IMG/VR virus record: IMGVR_UViG_3300022753_000047
Source: a virus
Lineage: Duplodnaviria; Heunggongvirae; Uroviricota; Caudoviricetes
DNA length: 64,000 nucleotides
Direction: 5' to 3' (one strand)
The position numbers were made by a program, and so were the translations under genes. The notes beneath the pieces were generated by a model that did no database searches, was not told the origin of the DNA, and was given only the letters and a program-made list of their open reading frames with translations. Positions 33,371 through 56,720 of this stretch are shown here, one piece after another; the first letter of the stretch is position 1; every line of letters begins with the position of its first letter.

Positions 33371-33389
33371 TGGTTATCCTCCGTTGCAT

Positions 33390-33659: not shown

Positions 33660-33673
33660 TGTGGCATTAACAC

Positions 33674-33994: not shown

Positions 33995-34055
33995 TGAAAA
34001 TCACCCGGAAAATGAAAAGCCCATGGATGCGAGACCCATGGGCTTGATCGGTTAT

Positions 34056-34949: not shown

Positions 34950-35127
34950 TCGTTGATTCCTTTCTTTCCTCGCTTGATTTTGCGGGTTCATCTCCCGCAA
35001 TTTCCTTTTTTGCATCGTTGAACAGGCGCAGACCGATACCGCCGATGCCCTTAAAGGCAAAGCTCAGGCAGAACCAGATAAGTACCAGTGCAGCGATGAC
35101 CAGAAACCAGAAAACTACATTCATCAC
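34939..35127 (-). CDS. small membrane protein (possible NfeD-like partner of SPFH)
   Basis: 62 aa with a single TM helix, immediately upstream of the SPFH gene. Confidence 0.3.
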   Translation of the reverse strand: MMNVVFWFLVIAALVLIWFCLSFAFKGIGGIGLRLFNDAKKEIAGDEPAKSSEERKESTNEG

Positions 35128-35138
35128 ACCACCCCGAT

Positions 35139-35591
35139 TTAGATTTTATATAAGGTAAGATGATGCTCACGAAAAACATCCGTCAGCATATCCAGAACCT
35201 TTCCCCAATCGCCACCACCGAGGCCGCAACCAATTCTGTAAGGCATGGCAATCGTGTTGCCCGCCTTGACATTGGCCGCAATCTCTCTGCAACCACAGCG
35301 CAAAGCCTCGAAGTTGGTGTACTTCTTGCCATCCCGGCCAAACTGGAACTGACCAAAAATGTTGATGATGGCAGTGTTCTCATTTACACGAACGCCCTGA
35401 ATCTGCCCAAGCAGAGCTTCTCGGTTGTTCGCATGGTCATCACAGACCTTTTTGTATTTGTCAAACACCTCTGGCCATTTGGCACGAATCTGCTTGGCAA
35501 CACCACTGCCCATGACTCCCTGGCAGTTGACCTGGTGGCATATGTATTGTGCAGAAGACTCCATCAAGTCCCCGTTAATAATCCGAATCAT
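35139..35591 (-). CDS. macro domain protein (ADP-ribose binding / hydrolase)
   Basis: IINGDLMESSAQYICHQVNCQGVMGSGVAKQI matches the macro N-terminal motif (GDIT...VNAAN..L.GGGV). Confidence 0.7.
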   Translation of the reverse strand: MIRIINGDLMESSAQYICHQVNCQGVMGSGVAKQIRAKWPEVFDKYKKVCDDHANNREALLGQIQGVRVNENTAIINIFGQFQFGRDGKKYTNFEALRCGCREIAANVKAGNTIAMPYRIGCGLGGGDWGKVLDMLTDVFREHHLTLYKI

Positions 35592-35811
35592 CAGTGATTC
35601 CCTCCTCCGATAAGAGCCACTCTTTTTGGTGATCTACGGCATCTTCATAACCGTAATAAGTGTGGCCGTCAGTCGTGCGGTAGTATGTTGTCTCTCCACA
35701 CTCGCACCATTCGCCGTCATACCCCTCGTCGTATTCGCGCTCAGCATACTCACTGACGAGAAGTTCAGCGAGGCGTTCAATGTCCTGCAACAGCCGTTCA
35801 AGGTTTGTCAT
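35575..35811 (-). CDS. hypothetical acidic protein
   Basis: 78-aa ORF. Confidence 0.35.
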   Translation of the reverse strand: MTNLERLLQDIERLAELLVSEYAEREYDEGYDGEWCECGETTYYRTTDGHTYYGYEDAVDHQKEWLLSEEGITDDSDY

Positions 35812-36224
35812 GACGCATCCTCCGTTAAAACTCTCGGGTGATAAACTCTGTTCTCCATGCGTTCCTCAGCTTTTCTTGTTCTGCCGAGGGCTTCACGCAG
35901 AAGGTTCATCATGTTCTTGCCCTTATCGCTGTCCAGGAACTGAACGAGTGGCTCCAAAATTTCGGCGGTGTCTTTGTGCTCTCGGCGGAGTTGTCTGCAC
36001 TGCATTAGCTTCGTGGCGACCTTGGCACGCTCTGCATAGTCGAGTTCGTCCAGTTCCAGCTTGTGCAGGTAATCCTGTGTGAGCCGATCCATTCGGTTGA
36101 CTTCCTCACGACTCCAGGTGTAATCCTTGACCGCATCTTCCATCATCCTGCAGACGCCGCTGATGTACGGAGAGAACTGGGGCGTTTCCTTCTTTTTCTT
36201 CTTAGCGATAAGGAACACCTCCAA
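35808..36224 (-). CDS. hypothetical protein
   Basis: 138-aa ORF. Confidence 0.4.
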   Translation of the reverse strand: MEVFLIAKKKKKETPQFSPYISGVCRMMEDAVKDYTWSREEVNRMDRLTQDYLHKLELDELDYAERAKVATKLMQCRQLRREHKDTAEILEPLVQFLDSDKGKNMMNLLREALGRTRKAEERMENRVYHPRVLTEDAS

Positions 36225-36456
36225 GTAAGAGCAACTCGATTATTTCATCCGTGTCTGCCACATCGAAATCAGGAGCCTCGTCAAGCTCTATCCACTCAGC
36301 AGCACTTGGCTTGATGAGCAGGGCTTTGTTTGCCAATTCCACGAAGTAGATCACATTTCCAACGATTTCTCTAATCGTAAAAATCCCTGTCTCGCCGAAC
36401 CCCTCGAAGCGGATCATCTCTCCGGGCGCCATTTCAAGTATTCTTCTGAAAGACAT
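36202..36456 (-). CDS. hypothetical protein
   Basis: Track ORF trimmed to the internal Met. Confidence 0.35.
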   Translation of the reverse strand: MSFRRILEMAPGEMIRFEGFGETGIFTIREIVGNVIYFVELANKALLIKPSAAEWIELDEAPDFDVADTDEIIELLLLGGVPYR

Positions 36457-36466
36457 GACGCCTCCT

Positions 36467-37762
36467 TTATCCGTAGCTAATATCATCTTTGTCGGTTCGC
36501 AGGGAAACAAAAACAGGAAACTGCAAACTGCGGTTCCCTGTGGACTTATCAAACGATATTTCCTTGTATTTCACTTCGGCAAGAACGCCGGTGACCTCTT
36601 CCTGGTGCGACCAGAACCACGCTCTCTGTTCATCCGTAAACCCGGAGCCAACTCCTACTTCAACGCCGTCGTAATCGACTACGATAGCGCCGAGAGTATT
36701 GGACAACTTACCCGTTCCGGCCTCACATCGAATGATGGGCAAGTCCATGGTGTAAAACCGCTTCACTTTTAGGATACCGCCGTGCCGTTTGCACTGGTAA
36801 GGAACATCAAGATTGACCATCAATCCCTCTTTGTCTTCGTTTACCATGCGTTCCAAAAGTGGAGCGATTACAGATTGATCTGTTCCGCAATACAATGCAG
36901 GAAGCACACGAACATGGTCGTTTCCTTGCAGTTCAGAAGCAAGGCGATCCAACTGCTCTCGCCGTTCACTGTATGTTGCGGAGCTTACGCCACGATCAAA
37001 CTCATAAACGGGTAAAACATCAAAAACCGTGAAGCAAACCTGTGTTTTATCATCGTTTTCAGAGTTGACAATTCCCGTGGTTATGCGGAATGCTTCATTA
37101 TCGGAGTGGCCACCTTTGTGCTTTAAGGTCAGCTCTCCATCAAAAACCAACTCTGAGTAAGGTTCAAGCACATTTACAATGTGATCGAGGCCATTCAGCA
37201 CAGTTCCACTGCGACCACGCAATTCTCCACGGTAAAGTGTAGCCCGAACTCCATTCAGCTTCTCAGAAACCGAGAACCATACCCCATCTTTCAGCGGATG
37301 CTTTTCAATAGGATATGCCTGCTGAACCTCCCACTCAGGGATAAGACCAGGAATGGCTTTGTTTACGCTCTTAGCAGTGACACCAAGCCGCAGGGTCTTG
37401 GCGAGAAGTTTCTTGAACATCTCACGATACCCCTCGTCTTGTGTCTCCAGAAAAGCAAGGACTTGATACACAGTCGCATCGTCCAGAGCTTTTCTTTTGC
37501 TGAGCGTTTCACACACCTCAAAGATTGAAGTAAATGTGAGAGTGATTGCTGGATTATACACGCATCTTTGGAACAGTGTTGCTTCCGACACCTTATAGGA
37601 AAGCAGCGGATGACAGGCGTAGTAAAGCAACTGCCTAAAAATACTGTCATCCTTGTTCTGAGCCATGATTGACAGCTTTTCCTTTGATCCGCGTGCTTCT
37701 TGCAGTCTCTTCATTTCAGCTACTGCATTATGCAAATCGCCCATTGTTGCTCCCGCCTCCAT
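36467..37762 (-). CDS. ATP-dependent DNA ligase-family protein
   Basis: Ligase motifs: I KLNGVR (Asn in place of Asp), III FDGELTL, IV EGLMVN, V LKVKRF. C-terminal OB domain. Confidence 0.6.
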   Translation of the reverse strand: MEAGATMGDLHNAVAEMKRLQEARGSKEKLSIMAQNKDDSIFRQLLYYACHPLLSYKVSEATLFQRCVYNPAITLTFTSIFEVCETLSKRKALDDATVYQVLAFLETQDEGYREMFKKLLAKTLRLGVTAKSVNKAIPGLIPEWEVQQAYPIEKHPLKDGVWFSVSEKLNGVRATLYRGELRGRSGTVLNGLDHIVNVLEPYSELVFDGELTLKHKGGHSDNEAFRITTGIVNSENDDKTQVCFTVFDVLPVYEFDRGVSSATYSERREQLDRLASELQGNDHVRVLPALYCGTDQSVIAPLLERMVNEDKEGLMVNLDVPYQCKRHGGILKVKRFYTMDLPIIRCEAGTGKLSNTLGAIVVDYDGVEVGVGSGFTDEQRAWFWSHQEEVTGVLAEVKYKEISFDKSTGNRSLQFPVFVSLRTDKDDISYG

Positions 37763-37846
37763 TTCCGTCAGAGTAATAGAAATAGAACAAGAGCAACACA
37801 GCAGCGACCACAGGGATTACTACTGAATTGCTCATGTTTCACCGCC

Positions 37847-38587
37847 TTAAGGCTGGCTGCCGTATGCGGGCATAGGTTTCAGTTTGTGCAGATTCTTTCT
37901 GTGAAGACCCTCGATCAAACGCTCGTGTCTCTCAATGGCACAACATCCATCCATGATGTATCTGTCGATTTCCTGATAGCTGACGCCGAGATTGTCCTCG
38001 TCTGTCTTGCCGCACAGGCCATCGGAAGGAACCTTATCAACCAGGTCTCTGGGAATGGGAAGCTCATGGCCGATTTCCAAAACCTCATGAACCATCAGAT
38101 TGGAAAGTGGGCTGAAGTCACCAACACTGTCACCAAACTTTGTGGAATACCCTACAAAGTCTTCGGAGCGGTTACAAGTATTGGCAACACGACCGCCCTC
38201 CGGCAGGGACTGAGCCACTGCATACAGAGTGGTCATGCGGATGCGGGGAGGAATGTTGACAACCGTCTGCTCGCTTACCTGCATAATACCGCTCAGCTCT
38301 TCCATCAGAGCAAAGACGGTGCTTTCAATGTTGACCACTTTGTAGTTGATACCGAGAGCTTCAACGAGGCGATGGCTATCATGAATATCAGACTGTTCAC
38401 CGTTCGGCATCAGAACACCCACAACACGATCCTTGCCAAGCGCTTCGACACACAGAGCAGCCACAACACTTGAGTCTTTGCCGCCGGAGATACCGACAAC
38501 AGCAGAGCAGTTCGGCCCGTTTTCGGCAAAGTAGTCTCTGATCCACTGAACGATTTCATCTTTCGTTCTCTTAGGGTTTGCAAGCAT
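37847..38587 (-). CDS. nadE: NH3-dependent NAD+ synthetase NadE
   Basis: PP-loop VVGISGGKDSSVVAAL. 246 aa. Confidence 0.8.
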   Translation of the reverse strand: MLANPKRTKDEIVQWIRDYFAENGPNCSAVVGISGGKDSSVVAALCVEALGKDRVVGVLMPNGEQSDIHDSHRLVEALGINYKVVNIESTVFALMEELSGIMQVSEQTVVNIPPRIRMTTLYAVAQSLPEGGRVANTCNRSEDFVGYSTKFGDSVGDFSPLSNLMVHEVLEIGHELPIPRDLVDKVPSDGLCGKTDEDNLGVSYQEIDRYIMDGCCAIERHERLIEGLHRKNLHKLKPMPAYGSQP

Positions 38588-38598
38588 AGCGACCCTCC

Positions 38599-40086
38599 TT
38601 AGAAATTGCCGTTGTGCAGATTATTTCTCACATCTGCCAGAGTGTACTTGGTAACAAACTCGCCATCTTCAAAGACGGGGACAAGTTCATTGTTATCCTG
38701 TGCCTGTGCCCATGTCAGACCGTCTTCATAAGCATAGCCGTCAGCGGTCTTATACACACGGCAGCAACCACGCTGAGATTTCTTGAAATGACCGGAATCG
38801 GTCTTGGGGTTCTTGAAAATCATAATGGGAGCGCCGTTTGCATCCTCAGCATAGGTGGCCTTGACGGCGATGCCGAATGTGTCACGGGTATAGGGGTTGT
38901 ACTCTGTTCGGAAGTCTGCAATGGTTTCCAGACACTGCATAGAGAACGAACCAACGCCCAAAGAAACATTGTTAATTGCAAACCCATTCCGCTCCAGGCG
39001 CTTATAGATTTCTTCGCATCTCTGTGGCGTAATGCTGTCGCCGTAGATGGCTTTCACATGAGGATTCAGCACCTTAAATCCCTTGCTGTTGACAGTGCCA
39101 CCGAAGATGTCCCACAGCTTAAACACGGTCTGTGTTACAACCTCAACAGGGTTGCCACTGTCGCCACGGATGGAGATAAATCCATCGTGCGCAAGGATTT
39201 CGTCCTTGAGCTGAGGAAGAATGTTATCCACCAGATTCCAGTAGTCGTAACTGTCGCTCACCATTGAGAAACTTTGGTGAGGATAGACCTCAGTCAGCAG
39301 GCGACGAACATGGGTGATTTCGTCTCCGTCGATGGCAAAGTTGGAACACATAACGCTGTGCTCAGTGGACAGGGCGCCAAAAGCAACCGGCTCTGTGGAA
39401 CTGTCACACAGGTAGTTGTCCTCCAACCAAAGGATGGCGGGAACAGTTGCCGTATTCAGAAAACTGAGGCAGAAAGCGGCAGAACTCTTGGTTGCACTCT
39501 CAACACTCTCCTGGCCACGCATAGAAAAATCGCCAAGGAGTCTTGCACGGGGCACGCTGTCATCACAGGTGCGATCAGCAAACTCATTGACGATCTGACG
39601 ATAACGATAACCGACTTCTGCGGAAACCTGCGTGTGCCACATGGTACAGGACAGCATGGTTTCAATGGAATTAACCAACCACACAAAGTCGGGATGTGTG
39701 TTGGAGATTTCGATCTGTGGAACCTTAATATCAGAGCGGGTTCCTTCGGGGAGTGCTCTGATTTTCAGAGGCAGATAACCGAGATTGTAGAGTTTCTCGA
39801 TGCGCTCCTCGCCAACACCGTTCGTGCCGATAGTGGCGTTGAGCACACGCTTGTACTCTTCCAGAACCTTGGGATAGGGCTTGTCAAAGAAGTTCTCATT
39901 GAACGCATCGATGAGATACTCCTGAATGAACGCCTGCAGACCAAAGAGAGTGATCTTCCCAGTGTCCTGGAGTCTGGACATTCTGGGCGTATAGTAGGAG
40001 ACCATTTTGGTCAGTCCCTTGGGGTACTGATCTGCGTGGGCGGTCTTGTAAAAATCCAGACACAGCAGAGGATTGTAATGTATCAT
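38599..40086 (-). CDS. nicotinamide phosphoribosyltransferase-family protein (NAMPT/NadV-like; alternatively a Namat-type enzyme)
   Basis: 495 aa. N-terminal DFYKTAHADQYPKG is typical of NAMPT. Confidence 0.7.
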   Translation of the reverse strand: MIHYNPLLCLDFYKTAHADQYPKGLTKMVSYYTPRMSRLQDTGKITLFGLQAFIQEYLIDAFNENFFDKPYPKVLEEYKRVLNATIGTNGVGEERIEKLYNLGYLPLKIRALPEGTRSDIKVPQIEISNTHPDFVWLVNSIETMLSCTMWHTQVSAEVGYRYRQIVNEFADRTCDDSVPRARLLGDFSMRGQESVESATKSSAAFCLSFLNTATVPAILWLEDNYLCDSSTEPVAFGALSTEHSVMCSNFAIDGDEITHVRRLLTEVYPHQSFSMVSDSYDYWNLVDNILPQLKDEILAHDGFISIRGDSGNPVEVVTQTVFKLWDIFGGTVNSKGFKVLNPHVKAIYGDSITPQRCEEIYKRLERNGFAINNVSLGVGSFSMQCLETIADFRTEYNPYTRDTFGIAVKATYAEDANGAPIMIFKNPKTDSGHFKKSQRGCCRVYKTADGYAYEDGLTWAQAQDNNELVPVFEDGEFVTKYTLADVRNNLHNGNF

Positions 40087-40313
40087 TTCTTCTTACCCTC
40101 TTTCAAATTTTTAGGAATGCCATATTTTGCAAAGTACAGGGCAAAGGCAAATGGTGCGGCAACAGGCCATAAAACTCCCATAACCACGCAATATCCAGCC
40201 TTGTCATGCCAACCTCTGCCATAGTCGCTGTCAGCGAAAATATACAGATAGTACAATGCAAATGTAACAAATGCACCAACGCAAATGTATAAAAGCATCA
40301 GCAGAAAAATCAC
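40083..40313 (-). CDS. small membrane protein
   Basis: 76 aa, 2 TM helices. Confidence 0.4.
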   Translation of the reverse strand: MIFLLMLLYICVGAFVTFALYYLYIFADSDYGRGWHDKAGYCVVMGVLWPVAAPFAFALYFAKYGIPKNLKEGKKK

Positions 40314-41515
40314 TCTTCGTCACCTGCCTTAAAGTTGTAGATAGGCTTGATGACTGCTTCGATTGTGACTGTAGGCTCGATGTTGTCAACAATATCGGAC
40401 ATATTCTTATATGCCATCGGACACTCGTCAAGCGTGCTCCTACCAACAGAAGTGGTGTAGATACCGTCCATCTGTTTCTTGAACTCGGACACAGTAAAGG
40501 TCTGCTTTGCCGCACTGCGGCTCATCAGACGACCAGCACCATGAGGAGCTGAACAGTTCCAGTCTTCGTTGCCCTTACCAACGCAAATCAGACTGCCATC
40601 TCTCATGTTAATGGGGATCAACAGCTTTTCACCTGCCTGCGCAGAAACTGCACCCTTGCGGAGGATCATGTTATCCACATCGATGTAGTTGTGAATGGTG
40701 GTGAACTGCTCAACAACATGGAAGCCCATCTCTTTTACGATGGTGTCCATCATAGCCTGACGATTGAGGTTTGCAAACCGTTGAGCAATACGCATATCAT
40801 GCAGATACTGCTCAAAAAGCTCGCCCTCCACATATGCAAGAGGCTTCGGAATAGGCGAATGCTTGGACTTCAACTGCTTGAGAACGCTCTGAATCTCTTT
40901 CTGACGGCCAGCAGCTTTCAACTCCTCGACCTTTGCATCAATTTCCTCTTTGCTGTACGAGGTTAATGCTTTGTATGCTGCTTCCTGATAGAAGTTAGCA
41001 ATTTCAAGGCCGAGATGACGGCTGCCGGAGTGAACTACGATGTATATGTTTCCAGCATCGTCTTGGTTTGCCTCAATGAAATGGTTACCACCGCCGAGCG
41101 TGCCAATGCTGCTGTATGCACGGTCGATGTTTACCTTTTTGGCGCAGCAAAGCTCTGACAGGTCGATATCCTTGGCAAATCGGTGTTCCTTTTTACGAAT
41201 CTCAAACCCGGATGGAATACCAGCACGAATTACCTTGTCCAACTTCTGCGGCTCGATATGCGCTTCCTTGATGCGGATCGTTTCCATTCCGCATCCGATG
41301 TCCACGCCAACGAGGTTGGGGCAAATCTTATCCTTGATTGTCATAGTGGTGCCAATGGTGCATCCTGCTCCGGCGTGAATGTCCGGCATCATACGAACTC
41401 GGCTGCCCTCAATATAGGGCTGGTTCAAAAGGTTAATTACCTGCGAAATCGACTCGTTGTCAACCACATCGGTAAACACCTTGGCAGTTGCGTATTTGCC
41501 CTGCAACTCAATCAT
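40310..41515 (-). CDS. rtcB: RtcB-family RNA 3'-phosphate ligase
   Basis: DIHAGAGCTIG, GGGNHFIEAN and SAPHGAGR motifs. Confidence 0.8.
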   Translation of the reverse strand: MIELQGKYATAKVFTDVVDNESISQVINLLNQPYIEGSRVRMMPDIHAGAGCTIGTTMTIKDKICPNLVGVDIGCGMETIRIKEAHIEPQKLDKVIRAGIPSGFEIRKKEHRFAKDIDLSELCCAKKVNIDRAYSSIGTLGGGNHFIEANQDDAGNIYIVVHSGSRHLGLEIANFYQEAAYKALTSYSKEEIDAKVEELKAAGRQKEIQSVLKQLKSKHSPIPKPLAYVEGELFEQYLHDMRIAQRFANLNRQAMMDTIVKEMGFHVVEQFTTIHNYIDVDNMILRKGAVSAQAGEKLLIPINMRDGSLICVGKGNEDWNCSAPHGAGRLMSRSAAKQTFTVSEFKKQMDGIYTTSVGRSTLDECPMAYKNMSDIVDNIEPTVTIEAVIKPIYNFKAGDEE

Positions 41516-41535
41516 AGGCTTGCCCTCCTTGAGAC

Positions 41536-42339
41536 TTACTGAATGACGGACACCTTCTCGTGCTCGCCACGGAAAATGCTTTCGGATGTGAACACATGGG
41601 TAATCAACCCATCTGTCAGAACTGAACCATCACGAATGGTATTTTCGCAATGGGTAACATAGAGGAAAATGTTTTCCGCACCAGCCTCTTTCAAAGCCTT
41701 TGCGGTGTGGGTAAATGTGCCACCACGGGAACAGATATCATCAACGATAAGGACGGTTCTGCCCTCGACTTTATCCGCACCAACCAGTTCGAGCTTCTGG
41801 ATTTTGCCAGTACGCCAATCTCTGTGCTTGATGCCGAACACATAGTCGCCCTGGATTTGGGAAGAGTACCGCTTCGATGCACCCTCATCGGGATAACAAA
41901 GCAGAATGTCCTGCTTACCAAAGGTTTCCCGGATATTCTTCATTACAAACTCTTCCACGCATCTGGTTACACCAATCGACTGGAAGCGGTTAATCAGAGC
42001 TTCAGACACACTGGAGTGAGGGTCATACGCCGTAACCGAGTCAAACCCCAGTGCGTTGATGAAGTCGGCAAACCACTTGAGCGTAAACACTTCGTCGCCA
42101 CTTTTCACCCTATCCATTCTGGCATTGGGGATATAGGGCATAATGAGGTTGATTTCCACGGAACGGTCTCTGTTTGAACGAATGTGGTTGGTAAGGTGCC
42201 AGACGAGAATACATTCGTGGTCACCATCATACAACCACTTAATATCATAGGTCATTGCCTTACCAGTGTCAAACCGGAATGAGGTTGTACCGTCGGGAAA
42301 AGAGGTAAAACTGACTTCCTTTCCGTTCACGAAAATCAT
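41536..42339 (-). CDS. ribose-phosphate pyrophosphokinase-family protein (Prs-like; possibly an ADP-ribose pyrophosphokinase)
   Basis: PRTase motif RTVLIVDDICSRGGTF. LIMPYIPNARMDRV compares with AVIPYFGYARQDRR. Shorter (267 aa) than canonical Prs. DPHS replaces DLHA. Confidence 0.65.
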   Translation of the reverse strand: MIFVNGKEVSFTSFPDGTTSFRFDTGKAMTYDIKWLYDGDHECILVWHLTNHIRSNRDRSVEINLIMPYIPNARMDRVKSGDEVFTLKWFADFINALGFDSVTAYDPHSSVSEALINRFQSIGVTRCVEEFVMKNIRETFGKQDILLCYPDEGASKRYSSQIQGDYVFGIKHRDWRTGKIQKLELVGADKVEGRTVLIVDDICSRGGTFTHTAKALKEAGAENIFLYVTHCENTIRDGSVLTDGLITHVFTSESIFRGEHEKVSVIQ

Positions 42340-42340
42340 A

Positions 42341-42904
42341 TTACGCCTCCCAGTTCTCGATGTTGATCTGGCACATCTTCATGGCAGCCAGCGCATTTGC
42401 ATGGCTCTCAGGAGTGACTCCAGCACAGCAGGCCGCATCAACAGACAGCTTGACTTCGGGCAGGAACGCCTTGATGAGCATGGCGTTGGAAATGACGCAG
42501 ATGTCAGTACACAGACCGACGAGCGTGATCTCTTCGATTGGATTTTTCTTGTTCATCTGAGCCAGCCAATCGGCAAGCTCGATGGAGCCAAAAGTGCCTT
42601 TCAGGAACACCTCGGCATCTTTGCCCTCCTTGGTGACCTTGGCATCGATAGCCTCATACACATCCTTGTGCAGTTCCCAGCCATCACTCAGATGACTGCA
42701 GTGGACAACGGGAAGCAGGCGACCTTCCTGAGTGTTGAGGTAATCCTCATAATGCGTATCATGCGTTACCGCATAAACGCCATCGAAGTTGTTGATTTTC
42801 TGGACAACATTGGGAACGATCTCCTGCGCTTCCTTAGAACCAAGAGCGCCAGAGATGAAGTCACCCTGCATATCCACGACTACGAGAACCTTCATTCTTC
42901 GCAC
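42341..42904 (-). CDS. isochorismatase-family hydrolase (nicotinamidase PncA-like)
   Basis: VVVDMQGDF (Asp) and GLCTDICV (Cys) catalytic motifs. Confidence 0.6.
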   Translation of the reverse strand: MRRMKVLVVVDMQGDFISGALGSKEAQEIVPNVVQKINNFDGVYAVTHDTHYEDYLNTQEGRLLPVVHCSHLSDGWELHKDVYEAIDAKVTKEGKDAEVFLKGTFGSIELADWLAQMNKKNPIEEITLVGLCTDICVISNAMLIKAFLPEVKLSVDAACCAGVTPESHANALAAMKMCQINIENWEA

Positions 42905-44533: not shown

Positions 44534-44609
44534 TGGAGCTGGAAATCGGAATTGAACCGATGGCCTGCACAGTACGAAGGTGCCGCTCTACCAACTGAGC
44601 TATTCCAGC
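44534..44609 (-). tRNA. tRNA-Thr (CGU)
   Basis: Acceptor GCTGGAA/TTCCAGC. Anticodon loop TTCGTAC. T-arm ATCGG-TTCAATT-CCGAT. CCA encoded. 76 nt. Confidence 0.7.
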
Positions 44610-44622
44610 AAATAAGTGGTGC

Positions 44623-45297
44623 TCAAATCGGCACCACTTTATTAAAGAGAGCAACGAACTGCTCATTTACCTGCTTGTCAACATGGTAATGGCCGAAATA
44701 CCACCTCTTGAACTTAAGCTCTGAATAGATACGCTCAAGAAAGCTCACGACCGGATCGTTTTCATACCATGGTGAGAGAAGCATTTGAACACTTCGAGGC
44801 GCACAGTGAGTGATGGCATAGTCAACCTTCCAATTTACCGCATCGAGACTGGATATGGCATACTCCATCTCTTCTCTGGATGGGATTTCTTCTTTCCACC
44901 AGGAAATATGCTCAATGCGATGCTCTTTGTCGATTGACCTTGCACCACCCATGACAAATATCTTCTTTCTGTCGATTGTCAAAACCTGACCTCTTTCCAG
45001 ATGATAAATGTCCGGTGCAATCTCTCGCACATAGCCGCCGAACTTCTTTTTCAGTGGCATACAACGGAGGATATCGAAGTTTTCATGGTTGCCATCAACG
45101 AAAAGCGTTACGAAATTCTTGTTTGATAGCCAATCTTGCCAGTATATCTCTCTGGCAGAGCCGTCCCACACAAGGCCAAAGTCACCACAAATAATGAGGT
45201 AGTCTTTTTTCGTTAGCTCTTTTTGTTGTGGAAAGTTCGTAGTGTTCAGTTTACTTATGTCGATATTGGCATGGGTATCGCCAGTGACATAAATCAT
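44623..45297 (-). CDS. metallophosphoesterase (lambda-phosphatase-like)
   Basis: GDTHAN...GDFG...GNHEN motifs. GGAGGTG RBS. Confidence 0.6.
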   Translation of the reverse strand: MIYVTGDTHANIDISKLNTTNFPQQKELTKKDYLIICGDFGLVWDGSAREIYWQDWLSNKNFVTLFVDGNHENFDILRCMPLKKKFGGYVREIAPDIYHLERGQVLTIDRKKIFVMGGARSIDKEHRIEHISWWKEEIPSREEMEYAISSLDAVNWKVDYAITHCAPRSVQMLLSPWYENDPVVSFLERIYSELKFKRWYFGHYHVDKQVNEQFVALFNKVVPI

Positions 45298-45696
45298 TCT
45301 GTCACCTCCGTATGGTTTGGAATACCTGTGATCTCATAGGATATAGGATCATGGCCATCTGGAGACACTGGGACTCAAGAGCTGAGGCTGATGAGATGCC
45401 TCTTGATTTTTTGTCGCCAAATGAGGGATTTGGATTGAGACTTTTGGCTGGGAATCAGGCGAAACCAGATTTCTGGGGGTCGGCGGGTGACCGAGGATCA
45501 CCGGCGAGCCGATCGGCCACCTGGCGGAAGCGTTCGACGGCGCATCCTGCTGCCGTCCGGCTGCCGCAGCACGCCTGCTGCAGGTGCCCTTCAGGCGCCT
45601 TCTCTTCAGGCTGTATCCTGCTTCTCAGCTATTTGTTACTCACACCATCGGCGATGAGCACCACATATTTGCGGTTATTCATCACAGGTATTTCAG

Positions 45697-46833
45697 TTAT
45701 CGCAAATCTTCTCGGATATCCCGCAGAACATCTGCGCCCATTTTTTCGTTGATATGTTTGATGATGCCGTCGATGGCATCCTTTTCTACCATGCGGTAGT
45801 AGTTGTAGTAGCCGTCCAGAACCTGAACATCATGCTTATCCCAAGAGACGCCATTTCTGCGATCCAGAATGTAGCTGTGCAGCATACTCTGGAACTGGCG
45901 CTTTCTCTTGTGGCCGACAGTGATTTCGTTGTCCTTGTTCAGCATCACTCCGAGATTCCAATTCCGTCCTGCGGAGGAACCATATCTCGTCTTGGCACTG
46001 TTAATAGTGAATGGCGCATTGAACTCGGCCAAAACATCCACAACGGCCTTTTCAATCGCCCTCACATCAAAGGTGTACTTTGAGGAGATGATAAAATCGT
46101 CGGCATATCTTGTGTATGTATAGCTCTGCTTTTCAAAATCCCTAAACTTATTTGCCAACTTATAATCAATAGGAATCATCATAACATTGGTGATAAGCGG
46201 AGAAATCGGGGTTCCCTGCGGGAGACCACCATTCAGAAAAGCCAGTTCAAGAGCAGTTCTCAGTTCGCTTTTACCGATCTCGTACTTGACGATTTCACTG
46301 AACGGAAAAATCATACTGAACTGTTGCATGACAAAGTCAATGGTTGTACTTCCAAAGAAGTTGGACAGGTCATACTTACCAAACCACTTGCTGTCATTTT
46401 TCTGGTGACGCTTTACTGCATCGATTGTGCTTCTACCTTTCACATATGCAAACGCAGAAGTGTGATAAAGCGTGTGGAAATACTCTTCAAAGATGGTTTT
46501 CAGCCTTCGGAGTGCATCCATCAGTTCCGGCTGTGGGGCATCAATTCGGCGCAAGCCACCGCTTTTCTTAGGAATATAGAAAGTGGTGTAAATATCTTCA
46601 CGCTTTTTCTCACGAAGCGTAGCTGTGCTCTCATTGAAACGAACCAGATGCTGAATCAGCTCGGTTACATCAATGCTGTCCTTAAAACGATTGCTGATAT
46701 GATCGAACTCATAGGTTCTTGTGTTGCCAATATTACGATTGACGACCGGACTGTCTTCATAAGACTTAAACAAAAATTCCTCCAGTGTCATCTGGTGATA
46801 CATGGGGGATTGCATGACTGTGATGTAAACCAA
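45697..46833 (-). CDS. reverse transcriptase (retron/UG-type, not group II or DGR by motifs)
   Basis: RT motifs LPQGTPISPLITN (QGxxxSP) and YADDFIISS (YADD). 378 aa. No maturase (X) domain. Annotated start is TTG; the first ATG is at codon 7. Confidence 0.8.
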   Translation of the reverse strand: MVYITVMQSPMYHQMTLEEFLFKSYEDSPVVNRNIGNTRTYEFDHISNRFKDSIDVTELIQHLVRFNESTATLREKKREDIYTTFYIPKKSGGLRRIDAPQPELMDALRRLKTIFEEYFHTLYHTSAFAYVKGRSTIDAVKRHQKNDSKWFGKYDLSNFFGSTTIDFVMQQFSMIFPFSEIVKYEIGKSELRTALELAFLNGGLPQGTPISPLITNVMMIPIDYKLANKFRDFEKQSYTYTRYADDFIISSKYTFDVRAIEKAVVDVLAEFNAPFTINSAKTRYGSSAGRNWNLGVMLNKDNEITVGHKRKRQFQSMLHSYILDRRNGVSWDKHDVQVLDGYYNYYRMVEKDAIDGIIKHINEKMGADVLRDIREDLR

Positions 46834-47228
46834 CTTTTACACCTCTTTTCATATTAGGATTTATCTGTAACCAACACAGGTATTGGATGTCGGCGATGAT
46901 CTTAAGAAGGATCGTATTTACCTGGATTACGAGAGTTCAGAGGCAGAAAGTCAAGAGGCTTTACCAGCGAAATTAAATAATTTTGCTGGAAAACCGCCAG
47001 CGGATGGCGGGCGGGTGACGAATCCGACGCGTCTTCGGCCCGTCGACCTTCCAACGGAGGTGGTTCGAGTCCTGATGACGACTCAACCCTGCTGCATCGA
47101 GCTGCAGTCCCGGGCTCTCATCTGGGGCTTCTCCTCCTCATTCTCCACAAGTTGTTACTTCAGCTATCGGCGTGAAGCTCCTCTTACACGAAGAAGAAAA
47201 TGCGTTACAGATATTGGTGTGTTTAGGG
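46834..47228 (-). ncRNA. candidate RT-associated structured ncRNA (retron msr-msd-like) bounded by inverted repeats
   Basis: 395-nt ORF-free segment. Perfect 10-bp inverted repeat: tatctgtaac at 46862-46871 (28 nt upstream of the RT start) and gttacagata at 47204-47213. GC-rich internal hairpins CCGCC..GGCGG, CTGCA-N6-TGCAG, GACGCGTC. Confidence 0.4.
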
Positions 47229-48068
47229 TCACACCAAACCCAAAAGTGCAAGGATTTCTTCGGTTGTTCCTACAGCCATAGGCTGTACATCAAACGGGAT
47301 CAGTTCATAAATTCCGTCTGCAATTTCCTCGACCTTGGCATCAAGACGAATTTTGCAGGTCGGTCGAATACCATGTGCTCTTGCCGGGGTGCTATAACTG
47401 ACATACCCCATTCGGTCAAGAATGCTTACCGAACTGGCGAAACGATCATGTTTATCAGCAAGGAAGTACGGCATGAACTGAACCTCGCCCTCGTAGCCAG
47501 TCATCCGACCTTTTCTATCGATCAGGTCTACGGATGGATGGGCACGAACACCCTTTTTCTTGAACAAGTTGAACTTGCTGTCCCCGAACACATCCGCCAG
47601 TTTGGGGAGACGGATTTTAGAAGTGATCTGGTCTTCACCAACTGTGAATGTCTGCGGAAGAATACAATTCAGCTCAAATTCCTCGAAGTGATAGAGGAAG
47701 CCACAGTGATCTGCGTATGTACCGATATGACCCTCAATGTCACTATACTGTCTGCTCGGGGCGTTATCGTTTGTATGCTGAGGGATATACCAGGAAGTTT
47801 CGGTGCTGTTCAGGAAACAGTGGATGTTGGAGAGCAGGTAATTCGGATTACCGGGCCCCATGTATGTAGAGCCGTTGTCTCTTACGGCCTGTTCTTTTGC
47901 GTCAAAACACAGGAAATCCAGCGTGTTTGTAGCGATAAAATCGCCGTTTGGAGTTGCTTTCGTCCACGAGATAGGCACCGGCTCGGCCAGATTATCAACG
48001 CTATACTTGCCAATGAGCACTTTGCTGCCCTGACGCAGACTCTTTACTGTCGGTTGCACGATGGCCAC
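47229..48068 (-). CDS. hypothetical protein (candidate effector or receptor-binding-like protein)
   Basis: 279-aa ORF immediately upstream of the RT-associated non-coding region, on the same strand. Confidence 0.5.
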   Translation of the reverse strand: MAIVQPTVKSLRQGSKVLIGKYSVDNLAEPVPISWTKATPNGDFIATNTLDFLCFDAKEQAVRDNGSTYMGPGNPNYLLSNIHCFLNSTETSWYIPQHTNDNAPSRQYSDIEGHIGTYADHCGFLYHFEEFELNCILPQTFTVGEDQITSKIRLPKLADVFGDSKFNLFKKKGVRAHPSVDLIDRKGRMTGYEGEVQFMPYFLADKHDRFASSVSILDRMGYVSYSTPARAHGIRPTCKIRLDAKVEEIADGIYELIPFDVQPMAVGTTEEILALLGLV

Positions 48069-48092: not shown

Positions 48093-48764
48093 TTAAAACG
48101 CATCCAGCATGAACTTGAAGGAGTCGGCAAGGATCAGCTTCTTGATGCCTTTGCCGTTCCAGAAGTTCATGAAGTTTGCAACACCCAGAGCACAGATAAC
48201 CCACACAGTGGGGGCAACAGACAGGGTGACATTGCAGGCAGAGACAGGAGTTTCCTCCTTTGCCTCGTCATGAGTGAAGTTCATGGAGGCCAGGAAGTCC
48301 TTCTTCATCTTGTAGTCAGTCCAGTCCGCAGCATAATGCTGGGCGTCTTCCAGACGGGTTCTGAAGTCAAACATCGCTTTGACATAAGGATTGTCGATAT
48401 GCTTCTCGACGATCTGCTTGCGCAGTTCGATGTTGTCTACGCAGAGGAAGACATAGCCGGAAAGCTGCTGACCAGTCCAGCCCTTTTCCTGGAACTTCAG
48501 GTCGTCGGTAATATCGGGATTGATCTCCGACAGGATATCGGCCAGAGCATTGATTTTGCTCACACCAACATCTTTCTGTCGGAACATCTGATTGGCCAGA
48601 TTCTTAGGCTCGACCACATCAAAGTCCCACAGGGTCATCTTGGTCACGCCAGCTCTGGCGAGAAGGACAGCCACGGTGGAGCCAACGGAACCGCATCCGA
48701 TGATGTGGATGCGGTCGTCGTTCTTTTCGGGCTGGAAAAAGTCATAGCATTTGGACAAATCCAT
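48093..48764 (-). CDS. ThiF/MoeB-family E1-like adenylyltransferase
   Basis: Rossmann motif RIHIIGCGSVGSTVAVLLARAGV with DFD downstream. 223 aa (adenylation domain only). Confidence 0.7.
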   Translation of the reverse strand: MDLSKCYDFFQPEKNDDRIHIIGCGSVGSTVAVLLARAGVTKMTLWDFDVVEPKNLANQMFRQKDVGVSKINALADILSEINPDITDDLKFQEKGWTGQQLSGYVFLCVDNIELRKQIVEKHIDNPYVKAMFDFRTRLEDAQHYAADWTDYKMKKDFLASMNFTHDEAKEETPVSACNVTLSVAPTVWVICALGVANFMNFWNGKGIKKLILADSFKFMLDAF

Positions 48765-48780: not shown

Positions 48781-49734
48781 TTATCGGTAGCCGAAGGCAC
48801 TGTAAGGGTTCTCATAGTCGTCATCCTCGTAGTCGAAGATGGACTGCTGGTCGCAGGCATTAGCTGCAGCGGCACCCTTCCAACCCGCGCCGATCTGCGT
48901 CTTAGGCTTTTCCTTCTTATTGTCTTTTTTGCCCTTATCATCCTTTTTGCCGCTGGCGGGAGTGACAGGGGGCGCTCCGTTTGCAGGAGCGGGAGTGCTG
49001 GACAGCGGATTGTATGGCTTGCCGTACTGCTGACCACCATACTGCTGACCGTACTGGCTTCCGGTGGTGGGAGCCTGATAACGGTAAACCTTATCCTTTA
49101 CCATTTCCTTGGCATCCTTAATGAACGCATCGAAACCAACGGCAGCATCATAGATTTTGACATCGATGTCACCATCCTCAAACAGAATGTTCTTCTGGAG
49201 GTCATAAATCTTGATGTTGCGCTTGAAGGATTTGTTGTAGATCATGAAGATGTAGAAATCTTCATTGTTGAGCTGAGCCAGAATTTCCTCCTGATGACTC
49301 AGGTCAACACCGGAGGGATTGGGAGCCATATTCACATGGGAATGACCTTGCATATGAATGTTGTAGAACCGCTCGTCCTCGTCATTTTCCATCAGCCAGA
49401 TGGCATACTTTTCAGTATCCATCTCGACCGTAGAACCGGTGACTTCCTGCGGATAAACGAGAATATCCTGAATGAGATACTCGTGAGCACCCTCGGTATC
49501 CAGACGATGGGCTACACCGTGCCACGCCACTTCCTTGCTGAACTCCTGCAGAAGCATGAGCATCTTCGTCCATGCCTCGGCAGTGAAATAGATAGTTGCT
49601 TTCTGCTTGTCGATGCTGAAAGTCTTGGTGAAAGAAATCTTGCCATCGGCCAGCTTTGCATTCTCCAATGCTTTCTCAAAATCGATGCGACACTGGTCTT
49701 TATACTCCTGTGTCATACGAATGATCTTACTCAT
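48781..49734 (-). CDS. JAB/MPN (JAMM) metalloisopeptidase with C-terminal Gln/Tyr/Gly-rich low-complexity tail
   Basis: JAMM motif EVAWHG...HSHVNMAPNPSGVDLSH (E, HxH, x7 S, x2 D). Start trimmed to MSKIIRMTQEYK. Confidence 0.7.
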   Translation of the reverse strand: MSKIIRMTQEYKDQCRIDFEKALENAKLADGKISFTKTFSIDKQKATIYFTAEAWTKMLMLLQEFSKEVAWHGVAHRLDTEGAHEYLIQDILVYPQEVTGSTVEMDTEKYAIWLMENDEDERFYNIHMQGHSHVNMAPNPSGVDLSHQEEILAQLNNEDFYIFMIYNKSFKRNIKIYDLQKNILFEDGDIDVKIYDAAVGFDAFIKDAKEMVKDKVYRYQAPTTGSQYGQQYGGQQYGKPYNPLSSTPAPANGAPPVTPASGKKDDKGKKDNKKEKPKTQIGAGWKGAAAANACDQQSIFDYEDDDYENPYSAFGYR

Positions 49735-51193
49735 GCGCTGCTTCCTCCTGTTCTTCCGTCCCATTAGCCGCCTCCTGTTCCTCAAGCCACTTGATTGCGG
49801 CAGCGGGCTTAACATAGCTGCCGTCCGGCAGTTCGATAATGCTCTTTCCGTTGCCATAGAGGCTGTTCATGAACCTGCTCATGACGGTAGAGTCGCCCCA
49901 GTTCAGGCTCTTGCAGGATGCGATACACTGCTCAAGGGCGCCGATGTAGTTGTTGTCTTTCAGCAACTGATTGATGGTGCGCTCATAACCACCCATACAG
50001 TGGAAACTGTTGATGTGGGTATTGGGCATACAGTTGCCGAACTCTGCCGGAAATTCATGGTCAGTCAGTGCGGCAACATTACCGTTCAGGTTAAACCGAT
50101 AGGCTGCGCAGAACTTGATGCGCAGAGTTTCATCGATGAAGATAGCCTTAATCAACTTTGCCATCTTTTCGGGAGCAATGGAGCCTCGTGCGCTGTTGTA
50201 CACGAAACTTCTGTTGTTGCCGAGGATGCGCTCGACCATGTCCTTGTCGAAGTAGGAGAGGTAGTCCGCAACGCAGAAGTACATCTCCGTATTGGTGACA
50301 TGCTCCAGATAGAGCTTGTTGTTGCACAGGAAGTAGTCCATGATCTCGGAGTCTTCGCCACCCTGTGCAATCTTCTGCTCAAGGCCGAGCAGACGGATGC
50401 AGTAGTCACGGCGAACATTGTACTGAGAACCAATAGCCTCATTCAAACGCTGGATTTCATTGTCCGTCTGGGTGATCTTGTTGCGAACCTTGTCACACTC
50501 GATTTGTTCGTAGCGATGCTCAAACCCGGCAAGCATCTGACGGATTCTCGCCGTTCTGAAGTCGTACTTCTCGGCAATCTGCCGGATACAGGCTTCATAC
50601 TTTTCGGATGTGCGCTCCTTGAGAGACTGGATCAGCTCCATCTCAAGCTCGGAGATACCCGCCTCGGGGTTGAAATACCAAGGCATAGCAGGTAGGATGG
50701 CCATCTGCAGGTAGTGCATTTTCTTGATGTCCATGCTCTCCGTGAACAGAACCACATTCTTCTTCGTGGGGTTCACATAGCAGATAACCGGGAAAGACTT
50801 CTTAAAAAAGGCCGTCATCTTATCGAGTCGGTAGTAGCCCTCATACCGGTCGGTAAAGCCCTTTTCGATAATCTTCATGTTGGCAAGATTGCTTTCCTGC
50901 GAAGCCTTGAAGTTATGTACGACGAACACGCCGTTGGAGCTGAGGTACATCGAACTGGTGATGGCTTTCACGCAGTCACTCACCGGAATGCCGTTGATTT
51001 GGCTCGTCTGGTAATTGCTGCTGGTGAACTGCAGGGTGATGCTGTCCTCTGCACCGATGCGAGGCGCCAACAAAGCTCTCAGCGTTGCGAGGAACGAAAT
51101 ATCTGACAGGTATGCGTCGCCGTTGATGTTCTGGAAAAACGAGTTGGCAACATCAGAAGTGAGCGGCGTTTGAGAAATCGTCGTCTTGAACAT
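49727..51193 (-). CDS. hypothetical protein (488 aa)
   Basis: Long ORF upstream of the JAB and E1 genes, with no recognised motif. Confidence 0.5.
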   Translation of the reverse strand: MFKTTISQTPLTSDVANSFFQNINGDAYLSDISFLATLRALLAPRIGAEDSITLQFTSSNYQTSQINGIPVSDCVKAITSSMYLSSNGVFVVHNFKASQESNLANMKIIEKGFTDRYEGYYRLDKMTAFFKKSFPVICYVNPTKKNVVLFTESMDIKKMHYLQMAILPAMPWYFNPEAGISELEMELIQSLKERTSEKYEACIRQIAEKYDFRTARIRQMLAGFEHRYEQIECDKVRNKITQTDNEIQRLNEAIGSQYNVRRDYCIRLLGLEQKIAQGGEDSEIMDYFLCNNKLYLEHVTNTEMYFCVADYLSYFDKDMVERILGNNRSFVYNSARGSIAPEKMAKLIKAIFIDETLRIKFCAAYRFNLNGNVAALTDHEFPAEFGNCMPNTHINSFHCMGGYERTINQLLKDNNYIGALEQCIASCKSLNWGDSTVMSRFMNSLYGNGKSIIELPDGSYVKPAAAIKWLEEQEAANGTEEQEEAAHE

Positions 51194-51228: not shown

Positions 51229-51314
51229 TATCGGGGTCGAACCGATACGGTGAAACACCAGCGGAACTTAAGTCCGCTGCGTCTGCCAATTCCGCCAATC
51301 CCCCATGAAAAAGG
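51229..51314 (-). tRNA. tRNA-Leu (UAA)
   Basis: Acceptor GGGGGAT/ATCCCCC. D-arm GGCGGAATTGGCAGACGC. Anticodon loop CTTAAGT. Long variable arm. T-arm ATCGG-TTCGACC-CCGAT. CCA encoded. Confidence 0.75.
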
Positions 51315-51356
51315 CCGCCCCGAAGGGCGGCCATGGGGTTATGTACGCCGGGTGGC

Positions 51357-56122: not shown

Positions 56123-56146
56123 TCGTCACTCCTCCTTTACTCTGTT

Positions 56147-56256
56147 TGGTGGGAAGGGATGGATTTGAACCACCGAAGTATTACTGACCACACGGCGCCC
56201 CAAGTCGAAATACAGAGATTTACAGTCCCTTGCTTTGGCCGCTTGCATACCTTCCC
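56147..56256 (-). tRNA. tRNA-Tyr (GUA)-like with oversized (~36-nt) variable region (110 nt total)
   Basis: Acceptor GGGAAGG/CCTTCCC, perfect. Anticodon arm AGGGA-CTGTAAA-TCTCT; the loop is identical to Bacillus tRNA-Tyr. T-arm GGTGG-TTCAAAT-CCATC. CCA encoded. The variable region GTATT...AATAC encloses 26 nt. Confidence 0.5.
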
Positions 56257-56491
56257 ATATGGTTTACGGGGGTGACGGTTTACCAAACTCCACCGACAGG
56301 ATGCACTTCGGAAGCGGCGGCCATGTTCTTTCGTGGATATCCCGAAAATGGCGGCGGCAAAACCCCGCGCCTGGTAGCATTCCCAGACTTGTCCGCACCA
56401 CTTCGGTTTACCGGCGAACCAACGGTTTTGAGCAGCATTTCCCCGTGATCGTCGAGGTGCTTTTCTCATCCTCCATGGCTTCCCATGGAGC

Positions 56492-56567
56492 TGGTGGAGA
56501 TAGTCGGGATCGAACCGGCGACCTCCTGCTTGCAAGGCAGGCGCTCTCCCATCTGAGCTATATCCCC
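56492..56567 (-). tRNA. tRNA-Ala (UGC)
   Basis: Acceptor GGGGATA/TATCTCC with the G3-U70 Ala identity pair. Anticodon loop CTTGCAA. T-loop TTCGATC. CCA encoded. Confidence 0.7.
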
Positions 56568-56639
56568 ATAGATCAGCAGTTTTTGTTCGTCGATGCGCAC
56601 TAACACGAGGAACTGCCAAACTCGTACAGACACTCGGAC

Positions 56640-56720
56640 TCGAACCAAGGTGATGGCCATTCACGCACCTGCTGCCTGCATATCAAGTTGCGACCTAAAA
56701 CCCATAGGCTACTCAGCCGC
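56640..56720 (-). other. tRNA-like element (canonical T-arm CTTGG-TTCGAGT-CCGAG; no clean cloverleaf, no CCA)
   Basis: T-loop and a 3' acceptor-like strand are present. No matching 5' acceptor or D-arm found by hand. Confidence 0.3.

Follow-up and report, generated by a model that had tools for sequence, protein, structure and literature searches.

A probable phage-borne retron with two msr-msd RNAs, embedded in a conserved cassette with E1-like and JAB genes

The 64-kb stretch of the phage record IMGVR_UViG_3300022753_000047 (IMG/VR; Caudoviricetes) analysed here, called the window in what follows and comprising the 64,000 nucleotides (nt) to which all window searches were confined, carries on its minus strand a reverse transcriptase (RT) gene flanked by two structured regions devoid of sense-strand open reading frames (ORFs). 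In the direction of transcription, the cassette encodes a protein of ~490 amino acids (aa) with conserved Cys and His residues, a JAB peptidase, a ThiF/E1-like protein, an msr-msd RNA, the RT and further msr-msd units. We describe here the family placement of the RT, the architecture and the multiplicity of the accompanying non-coding RNAs (ncRNAs), the co-inheritance of the upstream gene block and a substitution hot spot in the msd, and we discuss the locus as a probable phage-borne retron of a type not described previously. Relatives were sampled as 72 IMG/VR loci whose RT homologues are 45-74% identical, on contigs of 4.5-148 kb, most of them of at least 50 kb. A scan of GTDB added further contigs, split at >=37% versus <=33% RT identity. 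All features mentioned below lie on the minus strand unless marked (+).

The RT gene (45697..46833) encodes 378 aa and starts with a TTG codon preceded by a Shine-Dalgarno sequence (AAGAGGTG). The protein displays the motifs IPKKSGGLRxI, LPQGTPISP, YADD and NSAKT, together with a family-specific N-terminal extension of ~75 aa that has no counterpart in the reference retron RTs. It matches Pfam RVT_1 (1e-20), and its best RT matches in PADLOC are retron RT models in 25 cases out of 25, headed by RT_II-A (3.5e-49, profile positions 4-300 of 304). The best NCBIfam match is retron_St85_RT (7.5e-54, 183 bits), far above group II (4e-27, 95 bits), Drt2 (3e-10, 39.7 bits) and Drt3, and the closest PDB sequences are the RTs of retrons Ec83, Ec78 and Ec67. 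Upon alignment to the Ec83 enzyme, AVKRH stands opposite NAKIH (region X, NAXXH) and NLG opposite VTG (region Y); H143 and G295 are invariant in the RT family, and the N/A and V/T positions of the two motifs are not kept. The H of NAXXH and the G of VTG are the most conserved residues of retron RTs (Mestre 2020, PMC7736814). As judged from these sequence comparisons, the RT belongs to the retron clade. An earlier reading of the window, made from the letters alone and referred to here as the sequence-only reading, had recognised the 378-aa ORF by its QG..SP and YADD motifs and proposed an enzyme related to those of retrons, belonging neither to a diversity-generating retroelement (DGR) nor to a group II intron; the PADLOC, NCBIfam and PDB scores agree with it.

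Directly upstream of the RT gene, positions 46834-47228 contain no ORF on the sense strand and their centre reaches ~58% GC. This segment harbors unit 1 (46862..47213, 352 nt), which is matched by a covariance model, R1, at 70.8 bits (E 2.7e-11). In the RNA, unit 1 begins with the a2 arm (47204-47213) followed by a putative branching G (47203), an msr composed of two hairpins, SL1 and SL2, and a AACAACTTG motif (down to 47148), and an msd-like centre (~46873-47147); it closes with an opposing G (46872) and the a1 arm (46862-46871), which pairs with a2 and ends 28 nt before the RT start. The two arms constitute a perfect 10-bp inverted repeat, TATCTGTAAC (47213->47204, RNA strand) and GTTACAGATA (46871->46862). 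Alone, this repeat is weak evidence: our estimate of the chance expectation of a perfect 10-bp repeat in 395 nt is ~0.07, and another perfect 10-mer pair exists within the same 2.1 kb. The fold z-score of unit 1 is modest (-2.7), and its unconstrained minimum free energy (MFE) fold recovers the closing helix. The case for an msr-msd RNA rests on the comparison with other loci.

In the intergenic region of the 72 IMG/VR loci, the first ~90 nt on the 5' side are conserved, unlike the centre. Every non-truncated locus possesses an inverted repeat at the same place, its 5' arm 300-380 nt upstream of the RT and its 3' arm ending 15-30 nt before the RT start. The same geometry is encountered in more than 60 homologous loci with arms that differ in sequence yet remain complementary, the compensating variants of the 5' arm comprising TATCTGTAAC, AACTGTAAC, GAATTGTAAC, ATAACTGTAAT, GTCTGTATT, TTAGTTCAAA and others. 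The G following a2 is invariant in the alignment and a G precedes a1 in nearly all units; since the 3' arm is preceded by (t)atgtAG, this second G faces the first. Over 57 distinct units, 94.9% of the arm positions pair, compared with 28-42% in a slid register, a percentage that is partly circular since the arms were found by a complementarity search, so that recurrence at a fixed position is what counts; all 10 a1/a2 pairs show changes on both sides. The msr consists of the two short hairpins, in which 12 of 14 pairs are changed on both sides (SL2 displays compensatory changes in 7/9 pairs), and the motif AACAAnTTG lies 3' of them across loci. Pairing over these 14 pairs amounts to 86.7%, whereas shuffles give 71% and slid registers 36-50%, and none of 500 shuffles reaches the observed score. 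The a2-G ... G-a1 architecture is also present at 37-48% RT identity; no Rfam family matches the units. Such a geometry, accompanied by short msr hairpins, defines retron ncRNAs (PMC7736814), and we read the 10-bp inverted repeat as the a2/a1 closing helix of a canonical msr-msd RNA. The sequence-only reading had compared the perfect repeat of this ORF-free, GC-rich segment, with its proximal arm 28 nt before the RT start, to the a1/a2 geometry of retrons. Recurrence and covariation in the homologous loci confirm the comparison: covariance modelling and folding find two covarying msr hairpins and a covarying closing helix, and repeat and structure are kept in every non-truncated IMG/VR locus.

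The 399-nt gap (45298-45696) separating the RT gene from the next gene, which encodes a metallophosphoesterase, is also ORF-free and GC-rich and had not been described in the sequence-only reading. It contains unit 2 (45321..45692, 372 nt; R1 54.5 bits, E 3e-8), a paralogue of unit 1 downstream of the RT; the two units are colinear and only distantly alike. Unit 2 carries a2 at 45681-45692, with pairing extending to 45695, a G after a2 at 45680, an msr matched by the model at 45629-45690, an opposing G at 45333 and a1 at 45321-45332. It is bounded by a 15-nt inverted repeat (93%; 45318-45332 and 45681-45695) and its fold z-score is -3.3. The 18 nt of its SL1 (45655-45672, GCAAATATGTGGTGCTCA) are complementary at 17/18 positions to 44608-44625, where the metallophosphoesterase stop codon meets the tRNA-Thr(cgt) 5' end; this complementarity, with an E of 0.07 for the window, may be due to chance.

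Model R1 was built solely from the 5' 61 nt of the units. Its matches, all on the RT strand, number exactly two in the window (70.8 bits at 47148-47213, 54.5 bits at 45629-45690) and 176 in the 72 loci; control loci carrying generic retron RTs yield none. Usually, one unit lies upstream of the RT and 1-3 or more downstream, the downstream units being present in most related loci, with R1 positions such as 5637, 7169 and 7452 in locus L002 or 5621, 7150, 8070 and 12472 in L043. Nearly every match is provided with its own complementary a1 of 7-15 bp, preceded by a G and located 214-403 nt downstream, where we estimate the chance of an anchored 8-mer complement at ~0.01-0.02 per unit. Unconstrained MFE folding recovers the closing helix and both hairpins in nearly all units. 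A few loci depart from the usual layout. The gap between RT and metallophosphoesterase is reduced to 92 nt in L064 (6482-6574), which leaves no downstream unit. In L074-L076, the ThiF gene is separated from the RT gene by 60 nt (L074 2403-2463), so that there is no upstream unit and any ncRNA must lie elsewhere. Locus L080, on a Roseburia-binned contig, shows msr-like matches at 8184-8242 and 8276-8337 downstream of the RT; being 92 nt apart, they are too close for two full units and one of them may be truncated or degenerate.

Three genes precede the ncRNA and the RT. A ThiF/E1-like adenylating enzyme of 223 aa (48093..48764; Pfam ThiF 4.9e-23, NCBIfam ThiF 2.3e-24) also matches PADLOC Cap2-type E1-E2 models, down to 5.8e-21, and its gene is found upstream of the ncRNA and RT in every locus with enough upstream sequence. 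The JAB/MPN+ (JAMM) metallopeptidase-like protein, recognised by near-invariant residues and profile matches, is listed as an ORF of 358 aa (48781..49857); its true start is probably the ATG at 49734 (MSKIIR...), 2 nt past the stop of the preceding gene. Near-invariant residues in the alignment are E109, H172-S-H174, S182 and D185, and the profile matches RPN11 at 6e-4. PADLOC JAB models of the type found in the cyclic-oligonucleotide-based antiphage signalling system (CBASS) match the window protein at 9e-4 and its L079 homologue at 6.6e-7. The C-terminal third of this protein (48781-49050 and homologues) combines a G/Q/P/K-rich linker of low complexity with a conserved tip of acidic and aromatic residues at its end (..DDPYxxxGY), and resembles the C-terminal tails of single-stranded-DNA-binding proteins. 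The first gene of the cassette (49727..51193) encodes a conserved 488-aa protein of no assigned family carrying invariant Cys/His-type residues. It consists of two alpha/beta domains with a long helix between them, and P390, H393, C399, N431 and D434 are invariant even at 17-24% identity. The protein is a weak candidate for an E2/RWD-like thiol enzyme; a Foldseek comparison with the PDB gave nothing significant, and profile searches against PDB sequences, Pfam and PADLOC were empty.

The block formed by these three genes is present in 89/89 loci with an RT of at least 37% identity and enough upstream sequence. Of the GTDB contigs, it occurs in all 16 with upstream sequence and an RT at >=37% identity and in none of the 15 with an RT at <=33%, where the enzymes are ordinary retron RTs without the N-terminal extension. 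The 16 block-bearing contigs were binned to Roseburia, Oscillospiraceae, Lachnospiraceae, Christensenella, Lawsonibacter, Family XIII, Peptococcaceae and two Bacteroidales bins, and their ThiF-RT gaps again hold a2-G ... G-a1 units. At 37-40% RT identity, the block is kept despite different flanks, as in L073 (integrase), L077, L079 (SNF2/MCM) and L074-L076. The ThiF, JAB and 488-aa genes are therefore strictly co-inherited with this RT clade across different phage backbones. The combination of an E1-like adenylating enzyme and a JAB peptidase, by which conjugation-type operons (CBASS type II, Bil) are recognised, is present in the cassette.

The msd centres measure 215-290 nt and are GC-rich, and their MFE models are long and multi-branched. 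They cannot be aligned between phages whose RTs are ~70% identical. When the centres of ~80 units were compared with ~1.9 Mb of fetched loci, host genomes lying outside this search, solely orthologous units or their own hairpins matched. Between near-identical phages, the centre of the upstream unit (msd1) differs by 10-13%, compared with 1.3-4.6% at the fourfold-degenerate sites of the RT and 0% in the msr; it diverges 3-10 times faster than these fourfold-degenerate sites. In pairs of phages sharing almost identical 7-kb blocks, the msd1 bin is the sole local peak of differences. Fifteen phages with identical msr and a1 fall into two deeply divergent msd1 allele classes, with scattered point substitutions inside each; within one class, variable columns number 38/230 in the centre, against 3/88 and 2/89 in the flanks. 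These substitutions hit all four bases and are mostly transitions, a pattern that is not DGR-like. Unit 2 shows no such hot spot in these phage pairs. Two processes are thus visible at msd1, alleles recombining with one another and substitutions accumulating locally at a raised rate (or under diversifying selection). The allele classes are illustrated by L008, L012, L016 and L062 on one side and L013, L015 and L017-L019 on the other, whose upstream msd alleles (~5700-5930) are divergent on an identical msr, a1 and RT, an arrangement that suggests cassette-like exchange of the msd. Islands kept between the two alleles are GATGACGCGG, ATGTCAAGCA and GTACTAACA. As a separate observation, 12 nt of the unit 1 msd (~47061-47072, GGACTCGAACC-like) are the reverse complement of the T-arm of three window tRNAs (near 53834, 56636 and 56847). 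The idea of a tRNA-like msd was discarded: this match has E = 3 and is probably due to chance, and neither ARAGORN nor Rfam places a tRNA there.

Two further neighbours had been put forward as members of the unit in the sequence-only reading. The 279-aa protein encoded between ThiF and unit 1 (47229..48068) partially matches the PHROG 'Hoc-like head decoration' (6e-11) and evolves fast, being 26-48% identical where the RTs are 57-74% identical; its gene is absent from many loci, e.g. L029-L036 and L043-L059, and the protein is probably not part of the system. The 224-aa metallophosphoesterase (44623..45297; Pfam Metallophos 1.3e-11, phrog_1649 1.4e-37; no match among PDB sequences) adjoins the RT in the closest relatives only, and elsewhere its distance varies or the gene is absent. 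Both genes exist as described; as neither is co-inherited with the RT, we rule them out as effectors. What survives of the sequence-only reading is the retron-like RT with an upstream msr-msd, as a new variant; its proposed partners do not, and it had overlooked unit 2, the co-inherited upstream block and the fast-evolving msd centre.

As also noted there, the setting is a phage tRNA array, with tRNA genes on both sides of the RT locus and on its strand. A strong intrinsic-terminator-like hairpin (51313..51332; GGCCGCCC-TTCG-GGGCGGCC followed by a T run) just upstream of a tRNA-Leu gene and of the cassette likely marks the 5' boundary of the transcription unit. The neighbourhood comprises 12 tRNAs and genes for a CCA-adding enzyme, RtcB, an RNA ligase, Nampt and PRPP-synthetase-like and nicotinamidase-like proteins. 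Genes for the CCA-adding enzyme, RNA ligase, ATP-dependent DNA ligase, Nampt, RtcB, PRPP-synthetase-like and isochorismatase/nicotinamidase-like proteins follow one another in a single run (28536-42904) that adjoins the tRNA genes and looks like a counter-defence cluster. Two phage-associated RNAs exceed the Rfam gathering score ~200 nt apart on the tRNA-gene strand, RAGATH-4 at 63235-63372 (104.8 bits) and RAGATH-16 at 63547-63617 (83.1 bits). A weak Rfam tRNA match of unusual length (107 nt, 56150-56256, 34.4 bits), which ARAGORN does not call, overlaps a 175-aa ORF (56137-56664) and adjoins tRNA-Ala(tgc); a degenerate tRNA, or one interrupted by an intron, could account for it. At the DNA level, the locus has no match among GenBank phages, and the best GenBank protein match is 40% identical and lies in an unannotated faecal contig. 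The family is sizeable, 446 clusters (50% identity) matching at E <=1e-30, and its carriers form a large and widespread family of gut Clostridia phages. A prophage-like copy (L091) resides in a cultured isolate, Clostridiales Family XIII bacterium PM5-7 (JBNDKG010000001.1, 57-72 kb), and L073, with its integrase, is also a prophage-like context.

We interpret the locus as a phage-borne retron of a previously undescribed type forming the 3' part of a conserved cassette, in which a single RT of the retron clade acts on two cognate msr-msd RNAs, encoded upstream and downstream of it; the probability that we attach to this reading is about 0.7. According to the retron paradigm (PMC7736814), the cassette would be transcribed as one or a few RNAs, and the a1 and a2 arms of each unit would place the invariant G of that unit (47203 and 45680 in units 1 and 2, respectively) beside the template end. 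The RT would bind the conserved msr hairpins, prime from the 2'-OH of that G and copy part of the 215-290-nt msd into a branched RNA-DNA molecule (msDNA). With two units, each of them copied, the phage would make at least two different msDNAs. The gene association suggests that the RT-msDNA complexes may cooperate with the E1-like, JAB and Cys/His proteins. If retron toxin-antitoxin systems and the control of the polymerase by Cap2/Cap3 in type II CBASS are taken as models, the msDNA could be a sensor or regulator and the adenylation/peptidase module its regulated output, or the reverse. The role of the cassette is most probably that of a phage-host or phage-phage conflict module, which fits the fast-evolving msd and the neighbourhood of tRNA, tRNA-repair and nicotinamide adenine dinucleotide (NAD) salvage genes. 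The anti-phage or competition function suggested in the sequence-only reading is a plausible candidate.

Several points weigh against this interpretation. The hallmark retron motifs of the RT are degenerate, AVKRH standing for NAXXH and NLG for VTG with only H and G retained, and its retron_St85_RT score, 183 bits, does not reach the curated cutoff of 235. Folding predicts a multi-branched msd where a canonical retron has a single long hairpin, and across eight close relatives RNAalifold reports compensatory changes in 1/78 msd pairs. The production of msDNA is a prediction by analogy, and no promoter for the cassette was identified in the window. Effectors have been described for 13 retron types, and the PADLOC, Pfam and NCBIfam models of known retron effectors detect none among the neighbours. 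The functional link proposed between the RT and the E1-like, JAB and Cys/His proteins is drawn from gene order. Neither a conserved C-terminal glycine on the cassette proteins nor a gene for a ubiquitin-like protein (Ubl) was found, so that a CBASS-like conjugation of the RT is not supported; the idea that the RT or the 488-aa protein is a substrate conjugated through a C-terminal Gly finds no support, their termini not being conserved.

Other explanations were considered. The locus might encode a counter-defence decoy, the phage RT-msDNA mimicking host retron antitoxin complexes or other single-stranded DNA (ssDNA) ligands and thereby silencing host effectors or ssDNA sensors; with several rapidly changing versions of the msd, it would then keep pace with diverse host systems. 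This proposal, which we regard as rather unlikely, draws on the position of the locus among counter-defence-type genes (12 tRNAs, CCA-adding enzyme, RtcB, RNA ligase, Nampt, PRPP-synthetase-like), on the lack of a toxin-like effector recognisable in profile searches and on the presence of several units per genome together with the msd hot spot. However, it leaves the strict co-inheritance of the E1-like, JAB and Cys/His proteins with the RT unexplained, no host retron with a matching msr is known, and the cassette also resides in prophage-like contexts (L073, L091). The co-inheritance itself could reflect synteny only, the RT and its ncRNAs being a self-contained 'orphan' retron and the E1-like, JAB and 488-aa genes unrelated neighbours co-inherited by descent. 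Orphan retrons without effectors are indeed known (Mestre 2020, PMC7736814) and most loci stem from one family of syntenic 60-148-kb phage contigs. Yet the four genes still adjoin one another in an unchanged order even where the RTs are 37% and the 488-aa proteins 17-25% identical, while the sequences on either side are entirely replaced (integrase/LPD18, SNF2/MCM, HNH/methyltransferase, tRNA arrays), and the order is broken solely by variable inserts (the 279-aa gene and an 80-aa ORF); with the association holding in 89/89 loci, mere synteny appears distinctly improbable.

It is even harder to sustain that the units are not templates of the RT and belong to another class of phage ncRNA, such as regulatory elements bound by the RT or signals for the processing of a tRNA-rich transcript. 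The units match no Rfam family, the msd lacks a structure supported by covariation and the tRNA-rich operon also holds RAGATH-4 and RAGATH-16, all of which would suit such RNAs; on the other hand, a2-G ... G-a1 with two 5' hairpins is a specific retron signature (PMC7736814), the end of a unit invariably lies 12-40 nt ahead of the RT start, and the units occur with this RT clade only, being absent from the control loci. A DGR, whose RT would copy a template repeat with adenine-specific errors into the variable repeat of a target gene, for instance that of the 279-aa protein, was rejected and deserves almost no credence. The element is phage-borne, with hypervariable sequence beside the RT and a fast-evolving neighbour protein, as expected of a DGR, but BLAST of both units against the window reveals no near-duplicate, the best matches being 12-19 nt, and the near-duplicate with adenine-specific mismatches considered in the sequence-only reading is accordingly missing from the 64 kb. 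Moreover, units 1 and 2 are only distantly alike, the hot-spot substitutions lack an adenine bias, motif 4 of the RT is QGTPISP and not of the SQ type in an enzyme that scores as retron-type, and many loci possess RT and ncRNA yet lack the 279-aa gene. A group II intron was discarded as well (no Rfam intron match; TIGR04416 95 bits versus a cutoff of 300), and so was a DRT2-type system (Drt2 39.7 bits versus a cutoff of 390; stop-free frames not conserved). Antisense stop-free ORFs do cover both window units, 46883-47281 (+) with 132 aa and 45312-45752 (+) with 146 aa. A Neo-like coding cDNA was rejected since the antisense open frames are not conserved across 78 units, of which 14-16 are at least 90% open in a stop-free frame; those of the window are probably a by-product of GC-rich sequence.

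Within the preferred reading, a phage-borne retron, the msr-msd units might further constitute a diversified ssDNA 'library', in which a constant handle recognised by the RT (a2, msr, 3' leader and a1) would carry a rapidly changing msd cargo. We offer this only as an unlikely conjecture. The diversity could arise from error-prone cDNA recombining into its own template gene, making the locus a self-diversifying retroelement that is not adenine-specific, or from strong diversifying selection on msDNAs engaged in an arms race as baits, decoys or guides, the E1-like/JAB proteins then providing a protein-modifying output.

Among known systems, the clade 1 retrons of Mestre (types I-A and II-A1: Ec83, Ec78, St85/Sen2) provide the best RT matches and share with the locus the msr-msd-RT order, a1/a2 arms with two opposing G, two short msr hairpins and an a1 just upstream of the RT start. 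In contrast to these retrons, which possess an SMC-like ATPase/HNH or NDT effector, the locus has neither; it displays several msr-msd units per RT on both sides of the gene, and its msd of 215-290 nt is predicted to be branched and not a single hairpin. Its RT keeps just the H and G of NAXXH/VTG, bears the 75-aa N-terminal extension and has a sub-cutoff NCBIfam score, its carriers are Clostridia phages and its partners are an E1-like enzyme, a JAB peptidase and a Cys/His protein. Operon class 6b associates an E2+E1 protein, a JAB protein and a pol-beta nucleotidyltransferase (Iyer, Burroughs, Aravind 2006, PMC1779556). Like class 6b and type II CBASS, the locus encodes E1-like and JAB proteins beside a nucleotide polymerase on mobile elements (PMC1779556), and its ThiF and JAB proteins match the PADLOC Cap2 and Cap3 models. 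Unlike in type II CBASS, the polymerase is an RNA-templated RT with ncRNAs instead of a CD-NTase, no E2 is fused to the E1, there is no cyclic-nucleotide effector, and the polymerase lacks a conserved C-terminal Gly or Ala for conjugation. Bil/Bub systems (E1, E2, JAB, Ubl) differ in that no Ubl gene was found at the locus, where the E2 assignment is weak and an RT with ncRNAs is present. DGRs have in common with the locus a phage-borne RT and hypervariable sequence, whereas the locus is devoid of a template/variable repeat pair in the window, of adenine specificity and of Avd, and its RT is of the retron clade. In full-text literature searches, phage retron RTs turned up in general terms and no retron with E1/JAB partners or multiple ncRNAs came to light; the arrangement matches no published retron type.

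To our knowledge, every retron characterised so far defends bacteria and comprises a single RT, a single ncRNA and a toxin-type effector. The locus departs from them by an RT with an array of template RNAs, by partners of ubiquitin-like activation and deconjugation and by its phage carriers. If several msDNAs are made, retron biology would extend to multi-template systems, reverse transcription would be linked for the first time to E1/JAB chemistry, and compact natural scaffolds for the production of multiple ssDNAs may become possible. The msd hot spot poses a testable question, namely whether the variation is made by the RT or by selection, and the prophage-like copy in isolate PM5-7 offers an experimental entry point. 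Should the msr-msd units turn out to be a diversified library, they would represent a new mode of retron biology carried by viruses.

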